64,000 nt of DNA from Candidatus Ancaeobacter aquaticus (GTDB lineage Bacteria; Auribacterota; Ancaeobacteria; Ancaeobacterales; Ancaeobacteraceae). Made by a program: the position numbers and the translations under genes. Every line of letters starts with the position of its first letter. Positions within the stretch are counted from its first letter, which is position 1. The notes under the pieces are model-generated. The model made no database searches and had not been told where the DNA came from. It saw nothing but the letters and a program-made list of their open reading frames with translations. The stretch is from the NCBI GenBank assembly GCA_030765405.1, contig JAVCCP010000071.1, forward strand, positions 8,615 to 72,614, read 5' to 3'. Positions 2,460 through 54,038 of the stretch are shown piece by piece.

Positions 2460-4760
2460 TCATTTCTTGTTTCTACGTATTTCACTCAACAAATCCTCTA
2501 AATTATTTACAGAATCTTTCTTATTCATATCAATATAAATAGTTTTCTCTCTTAATTTTGGTTCCACCCTGATAACCATAGGTTCTAAAAGCGGTATATC
2601 AACGGTATTTATTGCACCGCTTTTATCGACGTAACGTGCAATATTCCCAAGGATACATCTGTTTGAATAGTGTGAATTCCTGAGATCTTGAAGCACTATT
2701 GGTTCCTCACCGAGACGCTTCTGAGAAATCAGTTCATTGGGTAAAATAGTTTTTATATCAGATGATTTTATGCCGATCAGCGCGACACATTGCCATTTAC
2801 CAACTTGGGTAACCACAACAACATTATTGGGGAACACCCTCAGAAATGTCCTTGCTATAAGCTCAAATGATTCTCTATCATGCTGATACAAAGGAATCCA
2901 CTGGCAAAAGAGCCCGTCTTTATTCAAATGATCTCTAATATTCACAAAATGTTCATATGTATATAATCTATAGGCACCCTGATTCCATGCAAAAAACAGA
3001 TCTCCTATAATGACATCATATCTTTCTTTTGCAGTACCAAAGTAATGCACTCCATCATCTTGTACTATGGTTACTCGCGGGTCTTTATAAAAATAATTTG
3101 ATAATGGACCAAAGTATTCTAGTGATGCATCAATAACTAAAGGGTTCATCTCTACAACTGTTATTGATTCTACCGCGTCATGTTCCTGTGCCCCACTCGC
3201 AGTCATCCCTGTTGCAAGACCGATATAGGCAATATCACGGGGATTTTCATGCATCAAAAGCGGAATATGACTCATCAATCTATTCCACTGAGGATATTTT
3301 CCGGAAGATAACGTAAAGTTATTGTTAACAGTCATAATAATGTTTTTTCCGCGTAATTGTTTCACGCATACCACACCGGAAGGACCAACCTTGAGGTTAA
3401 TAAGGGTTGCATCATCCCCGAGTCTTACGTGGGGTATAGTAATACTCAAAAACATAACAAAACACGCGCATATCACCGCGCCCCATACCCACGCACACCA
3501 CGTGCTTGATCCTCTTTTCATTTTGGTCATCATGAGTATCCACACCACTAAAGGGACTACCCCAAGAAGCACGCATGATCTCCATATGCCAAAACGCGGT
3601 AACAGAACAAACTGGACCAATAACGCACCAATAACGGCACAGAGCGCATTTATTGACAATAACCATCCTATGATCTTTATCCCTTTCTTTTCATAATTCT
3701 TCGCTTGATCCAATAGCCAGGGAAATATGAGACCACACGTAAAAAGAACCGGACCGGCACTTACAAGACCAACAATAAGCATATAGGTAAGATATACCTC
3801 TAATCTGCCGGTAGAAATTGATATCATTTTCAATCCATTCGTAGCTTTATAAAAAAGTAATGGAAACACGCACAATGTACCGGCAATCAAAGGCACAATA
3901 AAAAGCAGTGTCTTTTTGCGTGAATATCGCCCAAAAGAAGAGATAAGCGCCGCAAATCCTAAAATCGCAATTACTTGAATGAGTATAATACCAAATGACC
4001 ACGAACTGTTATGCCCCACTTGTGCACATGCGTGGAGCATTACCACCTCAAATCCGATAACAACAAGTCCGCTCATTCCGGCTAGGGTATATAAAATTGT
4101 TTTTTCAATATGATCCTTGTCTTCTCTATGAACATTTTCGAGAGAGGTATATCTATTAATATCCCGTTTAGAAAAAATATGGAGTATAAACGCGCTTATT
4201 CCTAAAAGCACACTGAGTGCCATAACCTGCTGTAATGTCCCGCTGACACCGAAGGAATATATAGCATAAAAAGTTACGCTTATTATGCCTACTACACCGC
4301 CGAGCGTGTTTCCTCCGTAGAGTACGGAGACTTTACCTTTAAACTGGATGTTTCTTATCGCTTCTATGAGTGCAAGTAAAGTACCTCCCATAAAAAATGT
4401 GGGGATTCCAACAAATGCACCGACGACTACTATCTTTACCGACGTTTCTGTTCCGAAGAAAGAGGACTCAAATAATGGATAAAGATTATAACAGGCTGCA
4501 AACAATGTTGGCAGCATGGTAAGCGCTATGGCAAGCTCTAAAAGCGCATACGAAAGCCACGGTGACTTCTGTAAAAGACTCCATAAACGAATGCTAGCGG
4601 CACCTAATGATAATGCAACAAAGAAGACAACAATAACCAGGGTAGAATTAAAGACTGATACGCCAAATATATTTGCAAAAACACGATTCCATAACGTTTC
4701 ATAAGCTAACGCTGCAGCTCCGGATAAGATTGCTAATATAAATGCCCAGATAAAATTCAT
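2460..4760 (-). CDS. Fused polytopic membrane domain plus spermidine synthase-like (aminopropyl/methyltransferase fold) protein
   Basis: 766 aa. About 450 aa of transmembrane helices are followed by a spermidine-synthase-like region (IAYIGLATGMTA...VVEMNP...YDVIIGDLF). Confidence 0.7.
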   Translation of the reverse strand: MNFIWAFILAILSGAAALAYETLWNRVFANIFGVSVFNSTLVIVVFFVALSLGAASIRLWSLLQKSPWLSYALLELAIALTMLPTLFAACYNLYPLFESSFFGTETSVKIVVVGAFVGIPTFFMGGTLLALIEAIRNIQFKGKVSVLYGGNTLGGVVGIISVTFYAIYSFGVSGTLQQVMALSVLLGISAFILHIFSKRDINRYTSLENVHREDKDHIEKTILYTLAGMSGLVVIGFEVVMLHACAQVGHNSSWSFGIILIQVIAILGFAALISSFGRYSRKKTLLFIVPLIAGTLCVFPLLFYKATNGLKMISISTGRLEVYLTYMLIVGLVSAGPVLFTCGLIFPWLLDQAKNYEKKGIKIIGWLLSINALCAVIGALLVQFVLLPRFGIWRSCVLLGVVPLVVWILMMTKMKRGSSTWCAWVWGAVICACFVMFLSITIPHVRLGDDATLINLKVGPSGVVCVKQLRGKNIIMTVNNNFTLSSGKYPQWNRLMSHIPLLMHENPRDIAYIGLATGMTASGAQEHDAVESITVVEMNPLVIDASLEYFGPLSNYFYKDPRVTIVQDDGVHYFGTAKERYDVIIGDLFFAWNQGAYRLYTYEHFVNIRDHLNKDGLFCQWIPLYQHDRESFELIARTFLRVFPNNVVVVTQVGKWQCVALIGIKSSDIKTILPNELISQKRLGEEPIVLQDLRNSHYSNRCILGNIARYVDKSGAINTVDIPLLEPMVIRVEPKLREKTIYIDMNKKDSVNNLEDLLSEIRRNKK

Positions 4761-24740: not shown

Positions 24741-24775
24741 GCTGTAAGCTTTAAGCTGTAAGCTATATGTTTTAA
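24741..24775 (+). repeat. Heptamer array, GCTNTAA family (5 units)
   Basis: gctgtaa gctttaa gctgtaa gctatat gttttaa. Confidence 0.8.
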
Positions 24776-24914
24776 GCTCCAATAATCAAATAGCAATTAC
24801 CAAACAAATTTCAATACACAATGACTAAAATACCAAACCATATGTTTGATTATTGGTAATTATTTGCCCCGAGAAATTTGAAAAATTCCCGGGATTTAGT
24901 CCCTTGGGGAGAAA

Positions 24915-40982: not shown

Positions 40983-41459
40983 ATGTCCGATGAACTTGAT
41001 CTCGCATTAACGTTACTTAAAGAGAACAAACTCGATGAAGCACGCTCATGGTTTAACCACGTCCTCTTCCATACCAAGTGTGATGTTGAGGAAAAGTTAT
41101 GCACACGCCACCTAAAAGATATTAATGCCCGTATAAGCGAATTGCAGTCCATTTCTACTATCAGTATCGACTCGACCCTAAAAGAAAATTTATTAAGAGA
41201 ATGTACTATTAAATTCGTTTCACGAGAGGCCGCTCACCGAGATCTCGCACAAAAAATCTTTACCGCAATACACAAACATTCCTATGCCAGCGACTCATCG
41301 ATAAAGATCGTTTTACATGATGCCGGATTAACCCTGGTTATACACGGAAAAGAAAAAGACTCGCGATGCACACTATGCGCCAAATTCAGGAACAAACTAA
41401 AAGACAATCTCGGTAAAGATGGTTTTTGGAAAGAGGGGAAATGCCCGTTCCAGCTATAA
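40983..41459 (+). CDS. Hypothetical protein
   Basis: 158-aa ORF with genome-typical composition and no recognisable motif. Its stop codon lies inside a GCTNTAA heptamer array. Confidence 0.4.
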   Translation: MSDELDLALTLLKENKLDEARSWFNHVLFHTKCDVEEKLCTRHLKDINARISELQSISTISIDSTLKENLLRECTIKFVSREAAHRDLAQKIFTAIHKHSYASDSSIKIVLHDAGLTLVIHGKEKDSRCTLCAKFRNKLKDNLGKDGFWKEGKCPFQL

Positions 41460-41480
41460 GCTGTAAGTTGTAAGCTTTAG
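41453..41480 (+). repeat. Heptamer array, GCTNTAA family (4 units)
   Basis: gctataa gctgtaa gttgtaa gctttag. Confidence 0.8.
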
Positions 41481-42061: not shown

Positions 42062-42471
42062 TGGTGGAGGTGGCGGGAGTTGAACCCGCGTCCTTGAGCG
42101 GCTCGAATATAACGTCTACATGCTTATTCTATCTTTAGTTCTCATCTCCCAAAGGATAATAGAAAAACCTTAAAGGAGATCAGCAGCGTAAAGTTCGCTT
42201 CTCACCCCGCCGCATAATGAGAAACTAGCCTATTAATCGGCGTCTATAATAATGAACAGGCACATCACCATAGACGAGCTACTTAATTAAGCAGCGTTAG
42301 CTAACACCCCAAGATTAATTGATGGAGCCTTAATGGCTGGCACAATATTCTCAAAGGGTATAATTTTACCTTTGTCAGCATTTATGTGTTTGCCAGGTTT
42401 TTAGGAGGCCACCTGACACCCTCCGCATGCAATTATACTCTGCAATCACAAGTCGAATCCGAATCACCCCC
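42062..42471 (-). ncRNA. ssrA: tmRNA (transfer-messenger RNA)
   Basis: Minus strand 5' GGGGGUGAUUCGGAUUCGAC... and 3' ...GGGUUCAACUCCCGCCACCUCCACCA. The 7-bp acceptor stem has the G3:U pair, and the T-arm is GGGUUCAACUCCC. An internal open frame ends ...GVLANAA-UAA. The gene is adjacent to smpB. Confidence 0.93.
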
Positions 42472-45631: not shown

Positions 45632-45715
45632 GCCGAGATGGTGAAATTGGTAGACGCACTAGATTCAGAGTCTAGCGCCCGCAAGGGCTTGGGGGTTCAA
45701 ATCCCCCTCTCGGCA
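45632..45715 (+). tRNA. tRNA-Leu (anticodon CAG), class II with a long variable arm
   Basis: Acceptor GCCGAGA/TCTCGGC plus discriminator A. Anticodon stem ctaga/tctag with loop TTCAGAG. Variable arm cgcccgcaagggc. T-arm GGGGG-TTCAAAT-CCCCC. No encoded CCA. Confidence 0.93.
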
Positions 45716-50095: not shown

Positions 50096-51037
50096 TTAAT
50101 TCATTTTTTCTTTTTCACGCACAAAACGTTCAGTGCGTATTGAATATACGGGATTAGAAATACTTTTACCGGCTAATTTTTTATCTATTCTATTGATACG
50201 ATCTTTAGCTTTAGGATGTGTTTTAAACCAGCCACCGGTTTCATTGCCTTCATTCATCGCATCCATATTAACAAGAAAAGTACGAAGACCAGACGGGTTA
50301 TACCCAGCTTTGGTAACAATTTCAATAGCCATCGCATCAGCTTCATATTCCTTGCTTCTACTATATCCTTTTGTGACAAGATCGTTGGTTATATCTGTTA
50401 CCGCACCTTGCATGACATCTTTAAGACTTCCGACATTGACATCCGTATATTGATTAAGAGCATAGTTTCCTGCTTCAGATGCAGTAATTGCCGCAAGATT
50501 GGAAAGACGTGAGCTTTTAATTGTTCCTACACCATGTTTTAATTTAACATGTGCTATTTCATGGGCAAGGATATTTGCTAGTTCATCTTCATTTTGTACC
50601 AGCTTTAATGTACCTTTCGTAATAAAGACATATCCTCCCGGTGTGGCCATAGCATTAACCTCATCCGAATCAAGTACTATAAAATGGTATCCACCGTATG
50701 TCCCCGGCGTACCAGAGGCATAGAGCACCGTATTTCCTACCTTATTAACATAATGCAACAATTCAGGATTATCATAGTTGCCATATTTATCGAATAAATT
50801 AACCGCAATAGCGCGCCCTAAATAGTATTCTTGTTCCTCGGTTATGCCTTCCGCTGCTTTAAAAAAAGCTGATCCCGTATTGGCTATTGCGCTCCCTGCA
50901 CCTGATGGAAGATATCCAGTTTGAGATGCAACAGATGCTGCAGCCTGGAGGGCTCCATCCATTGTCTGACAACCATGTAATACAAGTGTAAACGCACAAA
51001 ATAAAAGAAGTATACCGTTTTTCATTATTGATCGCAT
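50096..51037 (-). CDS. M48-family Zn metallopeptidase, probable lipoprotein
   Basis: HEIAHV (HExxH) in a LAHEIAHVKLKH context. Signal peptide ends in LHGC. Confidence 0.85.
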   Translation of the reverse strand: MRSIMKNGILLLFCAFTLVLHGCQTMDGALQAAASVASQTGYLPSGAGSAIANTGSAFFKAAEGITEEQEYYLGRAIAVNLFDKYGNYDNPELLHYVNKVGNTVLYASGTPGTYGGYHFIVLDSDEVNAMATPGGYVFITKGTLKLVQNEDELANILAHEIAHVKLKHGVGTIKSSRLSNLAAITASEAGNYALNQYTDVNVGSLKDVMQGAVTDITNDLVTKGYSRSKEYEADAMAIEIVTKAGYNPSGLRTFLVNMDAMNEGNETGGWFKTHPKAKDRINRIDKKLAGKSISNPVYSIRTERFVREKEKMN

Positions 51038-51519
51038 GAGACACCTCCAAACTCGCCGAGTTTTCCTTCTCGCATAAACTCAACTAATTCATAATCTCCT
51101 ATTTCAATAGCCTCTATTTGATCTAACAAGGCATAATTAAACCCTGGATTTTCTTCTCTATATTTTTTTTCAACCAACGGATTAAATCCTTTACCTGCAA
51201 GCGCTACTTCATCAGCAGAAATATTTCCCGTACCGACTTTACCGGCATGTGACAGATTAAGCTTTTTTAAAACACATGATGAGGCATGGATCCATCCAAC
51301 AGCACCGGATGAAGTTTTAACCTTTATCCACTGATTTTGTTTCCCCATTTCATCCAACCAATCTCCTCGTAAGACAGTTGCTATTGATGGCGCATAAAAT
51401 TTTGGAAGTTTCCTGACTTTTGCTTTCTTTTGCCTTACAGTAATAGTTTTAGCGTAACACGTCTCGGAAACAAAAAACACTGCCATAAACACAATTAGAA
51501 TATATAGATATTTCTTCAT
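51025..51519 (-). CDS. Secreted bacterial SH3-domain protein
   Basis: Signal peptide, then an SH3_3-like segment AKVRKLPKFYAPSIATVLRGDWLDEMGKQNQWIKVKTSSGAVGWIHASS. Strong SD GGGAGGGAG. It overlaps the M48 gene by 13 nt. Confidence 0.6.
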   Translation of the reverse strand: MKKYLYILIVFMAVFFVSETCYAKTITVRQKKAKVRKLPKFYAPSIATVLRGDWLDEMGKQNQWIKVKTSSGAVGWIHASSCVLKKLNLSHAGKVGTGNISADEVALAGKGFNPLVEKKYREENPGFNYALLDQIEAIEIGDYELVEFMREGKLGEFGGVSCDQ

Positions 51520-51536
51520 ACAAACTCCCTCCCTTT

Positions 51537-51811
51537 AGGGGTTGTGAAATAATAATACCCCCAATTTGGAGGCTCAAGTTTGAACCGTATGCAAGACGCT
51601 ACAACGCTGACGTCCCCTCTGTGGTACGTCAAGGAGGAGCAACAAAGCAGACGGTCAAAGATGAGCCTCCCCAAATGGGCTGGCCACTTTTTGGCTGCAA
51701 CGGCGTCACTCATTGTTTGCGTATCGCAGGGGATACGCGGCACTCTTCGTTCCTTGTTTCGCTCAAAAATAGACTCAGCCAAATTGTGGATATTATTATT
51801 TCACAACTCCT
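51537..51811 (-). ncRNA. Candidate structured RNA or cis-regulatory leader of unknown class; alternative reading is a MITE-like insert with ~29-bp terminal inverted repeats
   Basis: The core is GC-rich within AT-rich surroundings. The closing helix 51541-51569 / 51779-51807 has 29 positions with 2 mismatches and can extend by 4 bp. At least four internal helices are present (see finding). The strand was chosen from context: the element ends 4 nt before the SD of the SH3 gene. Confidence 0.4.
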
Positions 51812-51902
51812 TATTCTTTCCTCGAAATAGTGTACCATAATTCGCATAAAAACAAACGAAAAAGAACCTACGAGAGGAAAGATCATGCACATCAAGATAA
51901 CA

Positions 51903-54038
51903 CTACTTTGACTGAAGAACACTCACGCCATCCCAATCATCACCAGGAGGCTGTTTTTTAGAGTCTTCAATACGCTGCACATACAACTGAGCAACACTAT
52001 CATGTGGCGACAAGCGTAGACCGTCTTTAAATATGGTTGATGCTTTGTCCCACTCCCTTTGACGATACGCTTCTAACCCCTCATGATATATTTTGAGGGC
52101 ATCTAAAATACTTTGCGATAATTCGCCCTTTTTGGAAAGAAGTTCATATACACGTATGGGCTTATTTTTACCTTTAACCTTCACGAGATCTAATTCTCTG
52201 GCTTCAATAGTATCCCCGGCAAGCTCGCGTGTTCTTTGACTAATCATTATTTTGCTACCATAAATCTTATTCGCGCTTTCAAGACGTGCGCCTAAATTAA
52301 CTGTATCTCCAATAACAGTATAATCAAAACGTTTATGTGATCCCATATTCCCTACAAGCACAATCCCGGAACTAATTCCTATGCGGGTATTTAGCTCTGG
52401 CAGTTCGCGCTGCTTTAGTGATTCATTCAGCACAAGAAGCATCTTTTGACAATCGAGTGCGGCATAACATGCTCGCGCGGCATGATCATTTTGAGATAGC
52501 GGCGCTCCCCACAAAGCCATAACCGCATCACCCAAAAATTTATCTACGGTACCGGCATATGACAAAATAACGTCGCCCACTTCATTTAAATACTCATTGA
52601 GAATATCAACAAGTTTTTCTGGTTCCATGCGTTCTGATATTGTCGTAAATCCCGCAATATCGGAAAAAAATACTGTCAGTTCTTTCCGCTCACCGCCTAA
52701 CTTTAATTTTTCAGGATATTTTAATATCTCATTTACAACAATTGGGGATGAATATTGCTGAAATGCTTGTTTTATTTTTCGTTTATTTCTACCTTCTGTT
52801 GCATAATTGATAATACTTGAGACCATAACAGTTATAAAAAAACACATAAGTGGCGCCATCATCTCAAACAATACACCATACTTAAAAAGAAGCATATCTA
52901 TTGAAACAAACAGGACCAGTACCATACTGATAAGTACACATATCACCCTCACTGACTGTAAAGAATAGACAATTATACCGATGATAAGCGCAATCAGTAA
53001 TGAAATTGCATAGACAACTTCCTTCGGCATTTCTCTAATGAAATCTCTTTGCAGAATATTATCAAGCACTGTTGCATGCACTTCAGCACCGGGATAAATT
53101 GATGAAAAGGGTGTTACTCTCAAATCCATTAGCCCGGGAGCACTACACCCGACAAATACTATTTTATCTTTAACAATCGAGGATTCATAAATAGGTTTGA
53201 GCCCAGACTGAATCCTCACAGCAGATTGGATAATATCACCTATGGAGAATGCTTTGTAACATCCAGCAGAGCCATAATATCGAATTATCATTCTCCCTTG
53301 TCGATCAACGGGGATATTTCGATCCCCAACGGAGAGCACCTCATCACGATACCTAAGGCTATCAGCACTCAAAAGAGTCTTATAGGGAGCAAAAGCAAGG
53401 AAGGGAAAAACGTTTTTATCTATACGACTTACAATGGGAGCTCTTCTAAATACACCGTCTTGGTCTGGTTCCCCTGCAACATTCCCTACACCTTTAGTGG
53501 CTTTTAAAAGTTCTTTTATGGGAGGGGTATAAGAAAAATACTCAATAAGATCACTGTTTTCTATCCCCTGAACATTAAGCGCACCCTTATCAATAAAAAG
53601 GCTCTTGTCATTCTCATTTTTCTTTTCTTTCTTACTGCCAAAAAACGCAAAATAAGCTGCTCCATATTCTTTTATCGACTGTGCAAAATCTTCATCATCC
53701 TCTGAACCAAACGATGATGTTTCAGTGTAAAGCATATCAAAAACAAGCGCTGCGGCGCCACCTTGCATACAGAAATCAACAACAGGTTTATACATACCAC
53801 GCGGCCATGGCCAGTTTATGCCCTCATTGTTCGCATAGTGATCAATACTTGCCTGATCAATATAGAAAAGTACAATGTTACGCCCCGCCTTATCACTATC
53901 ACTTAAAACTCGGCATCTCCAATCATACGTTTTAAACTCAAACGTTTGAAGAAATGATGTGTGATCAAGGAGAACTACAACAAGAAACACAGCTACTGCC
54001 GTCACTATTCCCTGGATAATTTTTGTTTTCCTATTCAC
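51903..54038 (-). CDS. CHASE2-sensor class III adenylate/guanylate cyclase with a C-terminal TPR-like region
   Basis: N-terminal transmembrane helix plus periplasmic CHASE2, then a transmembrane cluster. The cyclase core reads ELTVFFSDIAGFTTISE...KFLGDAVMALWGAP...GISSGIVLVGNMGS...YTVIGDTVNLGARLE. Confidence 0.88.
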   Translation of the reverse strand: MNRKTKIIQGIVTAVAVFLVVVLLDHTSFLQTFEFKTYDWRCRVLSDSDKAGRNIVLFYIDQASIDHYANNEGINWPWPRGMYKPVVDFCMQGGAAALVFDMLYTETSSFGSEDDEDFAQSIKEYGAAYFAFFGSKKEKKNENDKSLFIDKGALNVQGIENSDLIEYFSYTPPIKELLKATKGVGNVAGEPDQDGVFRRAPIVSRIDKNVFPFLAFAPYKTLLSADSLRYRDEVLSVGDRNIPVDRQGRMIIRYYGSAGCYKAFSIGDIIQSAVRIQSGLKPIYESSIVKDKIVFVGCSAPGLMDLRVTPFSSIYPGAEVHATVLDNILQRDFIREMPKEVVYAISLLIALIIGIIVYSLQSVRVICVLISMVLVLFVSIDMLLFKYGVLFEMMAPLMCFFITVMVSSIINYATEGRNKRKIKQAFQQYSSPIVVNEILKYPEKLKLGGERKELTVFFSDIAGFTTISERMEPEKLVDILNEYLNEVGDVILSYAGTVDKFLGDAVMALWGAPLSQNDHAARACYAALDCQKMLLVLNESLKQRELPELNTRIGISSGIVLVGNMGSHKRFDYTVIGDTVNLGARLESANKIYGSKIMISQRTRELAGDTIEARELDLVKVKGKNKPIRVYELLSKKGELSQSILDALKIYHEGLEAYRQREWDKASTIFKDGLRLSPHDSVAQLYVQRIEDSKKQPPGDDWDGVSVLQSK

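Follow-up and report, generated by a model that had tools for sequence, protein, structure and literature searches.

The miniature inverted-repeat transposable elements of prokaryotes (MITEs) measure less than 500 bp, carry inverted and direct repeats, lie between genes and give stable stem-loop transcripts (PMC10969869, PMC11602168). In a 64-kb stretch of DNA from Candidatus Ancaeobacter aquaticus (the window, to which all coordinates without a locus prefix refer) we find an element of 273 nt at 51538-51810 that matches this published description in its size, its repeats, its mostly intergenic location and its fold. The element probably belongs to a family of short, non-autonomous DNA transposons of the MITE type, other members of which lie at unrelated sites. 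The host belongs to the phylum Auribacterota in the Planctomycetes-Verrucomicrobia-Chlamydiae (PVC) group and was described from Ace Lake, Antarctica (PMC9324843). We read the element in gene sense, on the minus strand.

Two described families offer a comparison. The Correia elements of Neisseria (CREE or NEMIS) form a long inverted-repeat RNA helix that is cut by RNase III, and their ends can carry promoters, and the ERIC sequences (for enterobacterial repetitive intergenic consensus) of the Enterobacteriaceae have orientation-dependent effects on mRNA stability (PMC10969869). The element studied here resembles Correia elements, which are small, do not code for protein, are bounded by terminal inverted repeats and lie mostly just upstream of genes; the short AT duplications of Correia elements and their co-transcription with the adjoining genes would also have counterparts here. 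In both, full-length and internally deleted classes coexist, here as forms of 273 nt and 170 nt. Correia elements duplicate the dinucleotide TA, whereas the flank here is the trinucleotide TWA; compared by description, the present element is also longer, is rich in G+C relative to its host, folds into a two-domain three-way junction with covariation, and comes from another phylum. ERIC is likewise an imperfect palindrome that is conserved between species, and it occurs in size variants that arise by internal deletion or insertion; it is transcribed with its neighbours, as our element probably is. It differs, again by description, in its length of about 127 bp and its occurrence in the Gammaproteobacteria. 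Copies within coding domains are commoner for our element than has been reported for ERIC, although a protein-based search favours copies of this kind.

The unit starts with GGGG and ends with CCCC (Table 1). An inverted-repeat search places the terminal arms at 51537-51569 and 51779-51811 (33 nt, 91% complementary, with 209 nt between them); the closing repeat measures 30-33 bp, and helix 1 of the consensus structure has 30 pairs. An 18-nt piece of the arm has only two sites in the window, with a chance expectation of 0.13. The G+C content of the core is 0.51-0.52, compared with 0.35-0.41 in the flanks and 38.6% in the genome. The minus strand folds at -118.1 kcal/mol (z = -8.4) and the plus strand at -110.7 kcal/mol (z = -7.4), and in neither orientation did any of 200 shuffled sequences fold as well. 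An earlier interpretation made from the letters without database searches (the sequence-only reading) had delimited a GC-rich structured element here and had drawn helices P1-P5 by hand. Composition and fold agree with it, and all five helices are present in the minimum-energy fold and show compensatory changes in homologues.

Table 1 Parts of the element, neighbouring signals in the window and copies at other loci
Feature	Position	Strand or setting	Description and basis
Flanking TTA, left	51535-51537		Direct repeat with the right TTA; target-site duplication or conserved terminal triplet
Left terminal inverted repeat, GGGGTTGTGAAATAATAATACCCCCAATTT	51538-51567		P1 3' arm on the minus strand; consensus helix 1, 11 of 30 pairs changed on both sides; homology to the copies ends here
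Domain 1, long bulged hairpin	51568-51670		P2 and P3 (51568-51592 with 51647-51670), P4 (51607-51632); helices 6-8, 12 compensated pairs
Linker, 7 nt, three-way junction between the domains	51671-51677		Four-copy consensus structure
Domain 2: basal stem, two conserved mostly unpaired strands, apical hairpin P5 (51719-51738)	51678-51780		Helices 2-5, 10 compensated pairs; absent from the short form
Right terminal inverted repeat, ...AAATTGTGGATATTATTATTTCACAACTCC	51781-51810		P1 5' arm on the minus strand; inverted-repeat search and covariation
Flanking TTA, right	51811-51813		Direct repeat of 51535-51537
SH3_3 Shine-Dalgarno (SD) sequence GGGAGGGAG and ATG	51525-51533 (SD), 51517-51519 (ATG)	-	Sequence and gene call
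TGGTACACT, extended -10-like site	51829-51837	-	Present in the sequence; no call in the promoter scan
Copy A	window 51538-51810	Between the CHASE2 cyclase and SH3 genes	The unit in the window
Copy B	L028 8017-8293	Interval between a metallophosphatase gene and vanZ, upstream of vanZ	87% identical over 277 nt, gapless; query of concatenated six-frame translations
Copy C	L012/L031	170-nt short form, priA/leuC interval	Has only the inverted repeats and domain 1; found by scanning metagenome contigs for the inverted repeat
Copy D	L040 2805-3040 (ENA ERZ27315977)	priA, left 155 nt of copy C, a different right end, sigma-54 (NtrC-type) response regulator	PriA lookup
Copy E	L044 758-1032	Ahead of a leuS-like gene, 18 nt from its ATG	275 nt with flanking bases counted; 32-nt inverted repeat (94%); exhaustive protein search
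Copy F	L045 5727-5999	In frame within a DUF2344 gene	273 nt; 31-nt inverted repeat (94%); exhaustive protein search

Domain 1, which holds an invariant GTTGCTCCTC / GAGGAGCAAC stretch, is the sole internal domain retained in the short form. The mostly unpaired conserved strands of domain 2 read CAAGGAnCGAAGA and TGAGnGACGCnG on the minus strand. A CCAAAT direct repeat occurs at both edges of domain 2 (51671 and 51779). What is missing from the short form is precisely the stretch between these two repeats, as would be expected if domain 2 had been deleted between them. The idea that domain 2 is an inverted copy of domain 1 was dropped, its support being marginal (z of about 3.6) in L028 and below significance in the copy of the window.

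The element was recovered as DNA in at least six distinct contexts, and further copies appear as translated traces. In all of the DNA copies similarity stops at the GGGG...CCCC termini. They are mostly intergenic (four of the five loci with both flanks, and also the orphan right end of L040). The full-length copies A, B and E share one orientation, each with a start codon 7-18 nt downstream; copy C points the other way with respect to the gene that follows it. The dispersed copies show several properties of a MITE family: the unit is below the upper size limit of about 500-800 bp, contains no transposase gene, has terminal inverted repeats longer than 10-15 bp, and occupies multiple non-homologous sites at which similarity ends at the termini. 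The sequence-only reading had named dispersed copies with target-site duplications as the sign of a MITE, and copies at unrelated sites with mostly TAA or TTA flanks are what we observe, with the reservation that these triplets may be terminal sequence.

An exhaustive phmmer search with the translation of window:51522-51800:- as query returned 12 open reading frames (ORFs) that contain translated element sequence. In some of them a protein domain is cut by the element: a Tag glycosylase domain at profile position 117 of 177, and a methyltransferase domain at position 46 of 97. A protein-based search detects only copies that are read within ORFs, and both the orientations and the in-gene counts obtained from it are biased accordingly. 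The translated hits are singletons by cluster lookup and lie on short contigs, and their inverted-repeat sequences diverge widely. One of the hit proteins, P0156 (137 aa), has an internal tandem duplication (EGPAQKGRTSAFHFK, twice) inside the translated element, which suggests, from the protein sequence, an element copy with a duplicated segment. Another, P0157 (260 aa), is a low-complexity repeat protein and probably a false hit. Contigs L007, L009, L037 and L039 (Logan, MEGAHIT; several assemblers) end within the element, as is expected of a repeat.

Copy D shares its left part with copy C and departs from it at the right end, where the junction reads TTTTGTCACAACCCC|TTAGTATAG; the next nine bases repeat the left flank (CTATACTAA) as its reverse complement. 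Either this is a fourth local copy or the assembly crossed from one copy to another, and the junction sequence could reflect a chimeric assembly, recombination between two copies or extension of a palindrome. Upstream of leuC, a near-consensus promoter of the sigma-70 type (L031 12239-12266; TTGACA-16-TATACT preceded by TG, an 11/12 match) stops exactly at the border of copy C, and the short element would therefore open the leuCDB transcript.

Other scans added little to this set. With the inverted repeat as query, 185,579 species genomes, among which the host is evidently not represented, gave one chance match in a Desulfonema coding sequence, and metagenome contigs gave eight matches, seven of them due to chance and one real (L012). 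In viral contigs, patterns taken from the inverted repeat and the core had no match or only chance ones, blastn against plasmid and phage collections gave no match to the element, and fuzzy inverted-repeat searches, blastn and nhmmer over about 495 kb of retrieved loci revealed no further copies.

In the window the element sits in a 383-nt gap between genes for a CHASE2 adenylate/guanylate cyclase (51903-54038, minus strand) and an SH3_3 protein (51025-51519, minus strand), the latter being followed by an M48 peptidase gene. The GGGG end (51538) is 4 nt upstream of the strong SH3 Shine-Dalgarno sequence GGGAGGGAG, as the sequence-only reading had noted. The extended -10-like TGgTACACT that it had pointed out on the far side of the element is indeed in the sequence, and the promoter scan makes no call there; transcription from this site, if it occurs, would place the whole element in the 5' untranslated region (5' UTR).

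Loci L020-L027, whose SH3 homologues are 59-65% identical, share the gene order of the window (OYE-type oxidoreductase, hexapeptide-repeat protein, CHASE2 cyclase, SH3, M48 peptidase, PMT_2, MgtE, Nramp), and BLAST for the element is negative there. The element is missing from five such loci of relatives with the same gene order, and also from L041, which carries priA; the SH3 or PriA proteins of these relatives are 58-65% identical. Because it is absent in relatives with the same gene order and present at unrelated sites, the element is not a leader specific to the SH3 and M48 genes. The earlier proposal of a novel leader, riboswitch or non-coding RNA accordingly survives in the part that describes a discrete structured non-coding element, and is not supported in the part that ties it to this locus. 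The relatives have FMN_red/flavodoxin_2 and DUF975 genes between the CHASE2 cyclase and SH3 genes (L020 4590-5845, L023 4662-5917, L027 4677-5926). The window genome has lost both genes, and within its interval 51520-51902 the element takes their place.

The triplets that flank the copies are TTA/TTA in the window, TAA/TAA in L031 and L044, TGA/TAA in L028 and TAA/CGT in L045. They are oriented as direct repeats and not as inverted repeats, and are putative target-site duplications. A 3-bp TWA duplication together with GG ends is the signature of transposition of the IS5 / PIF-Harbinger type. Tourist and mPing MITEs have similar 3-nt TTA or TAA flanking repeats and ends that start with GG, and it is by these flanks and ends that we presume a link between the element and Tourist, mPing and Harbinger, a likeness that serves only as a lead; it differs from them in its conserved internal sequence, because typical MITE families keep mainly their ends. 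Within the IS5 family, the IS1031 group recognises three nucleotides as its insertion site (PMC2516522).

The events at this locus could then have run as follows. The transposase would come from a gene elsewhere and, to judge by the TWA flanks and GG termini, would probably belong to the DDE enzymes (IS5 / PIF-Harbinger type); it would bind both ends of the unit, excise it and paste it into T-W-A sites. At the SH3-M48 operon the unit would have gone in downstream of the likely promoter and upstream of the Shine-Dalgarno sequence, at the point where relatives have two extra genes. Transcripts would then most likely carry it in their 5' UTR as a three-way junction of 273 nt, and any effect on the stability, processing or translation of the mRNA would, by analogy with Correia and ERIC sequences, be a by-product of insertion and not a form of ligand sensing.

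The fold itself is conserved to an unusual degree. We aligned the four full-length DNA copies (A, B, E and F), which are 65-87% identical with zero gaps over 273 nt, and derived a consensus with RNAalifold. Standard pairs make up 95.1% of the pair cells, and 33 of the 96 pairs have changed on both sides, compared with 18.4 +/- 2.5 in shuffled alignments (none of 500 reaches 33) and 2-6 when the pairing partners are slid. Compensated pairs are found in every helix (11 in P1, 5 in the basal stem of domain 2, 3 in P5, 8 in P2/P3 and 4 in P4); the unpaired strands CAAGGAnCGAAGA and GTTGCTCCTC vary hardly or not at all. Variable columns are spread over the three codon positions as 42/39/39, and no frame has an excess of synonymous changes. 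Covariation without a codon signal argues for a constraint on nucleic-acid pairing and not on a peptide.

The two strands are close to equivalent in this respect. The consensus energy is -121.9 kcal/mol, compared with -124.4 kcal/mol for the reverse complement, and the number of compensated pairs is 33 compared with 29. Such symmetry indicates that what is constrained is the DNA, or transcripts of either orientation, and no single RNA strand. There are 19 G.U cells compared with 9 A.C cells; a hand tally of the pair table by helix puts 9 of the former and about 6 of the latter in the well-supported helices 1, 2, 5, 6 and 8. We rejected a bias towards G.U on the sense strand, of which there was an early hint (8 to 2), as a signal of selection on RNA, because a general excess of C-to-T changes explains it better and the strands are equivalent in the four-copy alignment. 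Among the substitutions specific to copies A, B or C, counted on the G-rich gene-sense strand, C-to-T changes number 12 and G-to-A changes 4, and the six one-sided changes of copy C all leave a G.U pair. The C-to-T excess fits the negative plus-strand GC skew of the window and would be consistent with a deamination bias linked to replication or transcription.

Several observations weigh against a simple transposon. The window, the approximately 495 kb of retrieved loci and the plasmid and phage collections yielded neither a transposase gene nor a full-length insertion sequence whose ends match, and no related element end was found in the window or the retrieved loci at up to 5 mismatches in 23 nt. 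There is only one copy in about 74 kb of contiguous source contig (the window with a 10-kb extension), and the three or four copies from Ace Lake would share a single genome on the strength of shared samples, composition and a common nearest relative. None of L020-L027 and L041 offers a base-precise empty site, these relatives being distant and their loci rearranged, with differing gene content. The flank is nearly always TAA and could, from this regularity, be a conserved terminal sequence and not a duplication, and the flanks of copy F (L045) differ from each other, with TAA on the left and CGT on the right. Simple MITE decay does not predict retained bulges and compensatory changes in all helices. 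The core is kept at least as well as the inverted repeats, with 36% (37 of 103) of the columns variable in domain 2 compared with 47% in the repeats, and this conservation, as read from the alignment, suggests functional constraint. Under the transposon reading, the fold could be conserved as DNA hairpins used in transposition, as a transcript that is compact and harmless in either orientation, or through hairpin-templated repair.

These same data are the substance of a different account, in which the element is in the first place a nucleic acid whose structure has a function (for example an RNA module for regulation or processing, a ribozyme, or a template of the retron kind with a closing helix and two domains), mobility is secondary or does not involve a DDE enzyme, the working part is the conserved three-way-junction core, and P1 need only pair. 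The gapless 273-nt alignment of copies that are 65-87% identical, the level of standard and compensated pairs, the bulges, the conserved unpaired strands and a closing helix that is more variable than the core all favour it, as do the placing of copies A, B and E in one orientation ahead of start codons and the RVT_1 gene 6 kb from copy C. It is at odds with a structure that is equally good on either strand, with G.U cells (19) not far above A.C cells (9), unlike the situation in typical functional RNAs, with the lack of any Rfam match even at E <= 10, with copies that lie inside coding domains or, as for copy C, in the opposite orientation, and with the lack of an associated protein gene common to the loci; the orientations of the protein-found copies are in any case biased. 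We consider this account rather unlikely. The broader form of it, a new class of mobile functional nucleic acid with a selected three-way-junction core that spreads between hosts of 38-51% G+C, is similarly doubtful. Were it correct, the core might process itself out of host transcripts, recruit a host or transposon protein, or serve as template for a reverse transcriptase, and the inverted repeats would be the closing helix first and transposase sites second.

Two further readings fit less of the evidence. A leader or riboswitch that regulates the SH3-M48 operon in cis, perhaps sensing the cyclic nucleotide of the CHASE2 cyclase, would share with known riboswitches a 5' UTR position near the Shine-Dalgarno sequence (here 4 nt from a strong one), a multi-helix junction, conserved unpaired nucleotides and covariation; the fold is strong and a conserved CUCCUCC stretch would be able to pair with the Shine-Dalgarno sequence. 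The element differs from riboswitches in being tied to no gene family or orientation and in its absence from orthologous leaders, namely the five loci of relatives with the same order. Its copies lie by or in unrelated genes, none of them near a cyclase, which leaves the cyclic-nucleotide-responsive leader of the sequence-only reading without support, and the two strands fold equivalently. Rfam is also silent: at gathering scores the whole window yields only a full-length tmRNA (42062-42471, minus strand, 179 bits, adjoining smpB) and one tRNA (45632-45715, plus strand), with the element unmatched, and in E-value mode (Rfam 15, E <= 10) the window, L028 and L031 copies yield only chance matches to small nucleolar RNAs and small RNAs (E >= 0.88), far under gathering scores. 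The sequence-only reading had likewise matched it to no known riboswitch consensus, and we regard a riboswitch as extremely improbable. Only slightly less improbable is a translated peptide, either as a small gene or as an in-frame insert of the kind formed by the Rickettsia palindromic elements, which are palindromic repeats in frame within genes. One minus-strand frame is open in several copies, the unit and one triplet (273 + 3 = 276 nt) make 92 codons, copy F reads through in frame within a DUF2344 gene, and 12 database ORFs hold the element's translation. The DUF2344 profile match hardly differs when copy F is removed (111.6 compared with 110.7 bits). The variable columns, however, show no three-base periodicity, all frames have more non-synonymous than synonymous differences, a stop codon breaks the shared frame in the window copy, and hits found by way of translations are biased to open copies. 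The element thus differs from the Rickettsia palindromic elements in lacking any sign of coding constraint and in the intergenic position of most DNA copies. The ORFs that cross it have no Pfam match and no coding signal.

Three further identities were tried and rejected. An integron attC site has a different arrangement of ends, the unit is too long for one, and its neighbours are housekeeping genes in conserved order. A group I intron would have a 3'-terminal G, which is lacking. Elements of the IS200/IS605 type have no terminal inverted repeats, carry subterminal hairpins and insert 3' of a fixed tetra- or pentanucleotide with no duplication. Such an element (including PATEs and the carriers of omega-RNA) is rejected because here a 30-bp helix joins the termini, the same triplet stands on both sides, and Rfam gives no HEARO match.

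We think it likely that copies A and C, and probably B, are in one genome or genus. NCBI annotates the PriA of L012 as Candidatus Ancaeobacter aquaticus, and the priA-leuC locus and the window locus are both present in the ENA assemblies ERZ27315822 and ERZ27315831. L012, L028 and L031 are similar to the window in G+C and tetranucleotide usage (r = 0.81-0.88, compared with 0.80-0.94 among chunks of the window itself), and the nearest relatives of the window and priA-leuC loci come from one foreign metagenome, at equal divergence. A tandem motif of heptamer type (GCTRTAAGCTRTAAG...) is found just 3' of genes in the window (24741-24777 and 41453-41475) and in L012 (12011-12035); 27 of 28 positions of this motif are common to the window and the priA-leuC contig, and none is expected by chance in the window. 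Copies E and F lie on contigs of 45% and 51% G+C, which indicates that the element family is wider than this lineage.

Other features were seen around copy C and its gene neighbours. A cluster 4-6 kb downstream of the short element (L031 16536-20054) combines small ORFs with genes for an AbiEii/NTP_transf_5-like protein, a ParE toxin and an RVT_1 reverse transcriptase of 437 aa. Many PriA homologues (P0035, P0044, P0045, P0052 and others; 950-1020 aa) have an added Y1_Tnp (PF01797) domain, and in L041 a separate Y1_Tnp gene (3297-3980) is directly upstream of priA.

Recognition of the element as a probable MITE removes a false riboswitch candidate from annotation and explains assembly breaks in this lineage. 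It would add an undescribed repeat family, which inserts into 5' UTRs and genes, to what is recorded of a poorly known group of uncultivated bacteria. At the SH3-M48 operon, a structure of about -118 kcal/mol ahead of the ribosome-binding site may affect expression. The strict length, the gapless alignment at 65% identity and the covariation in all helices exceed what is expected of a decaying MITE, and make the family a good test case for whether such elements stay folded because transposition needs DNA hairpins, because host transcripts then suffer less, or because the elements do something themselves.

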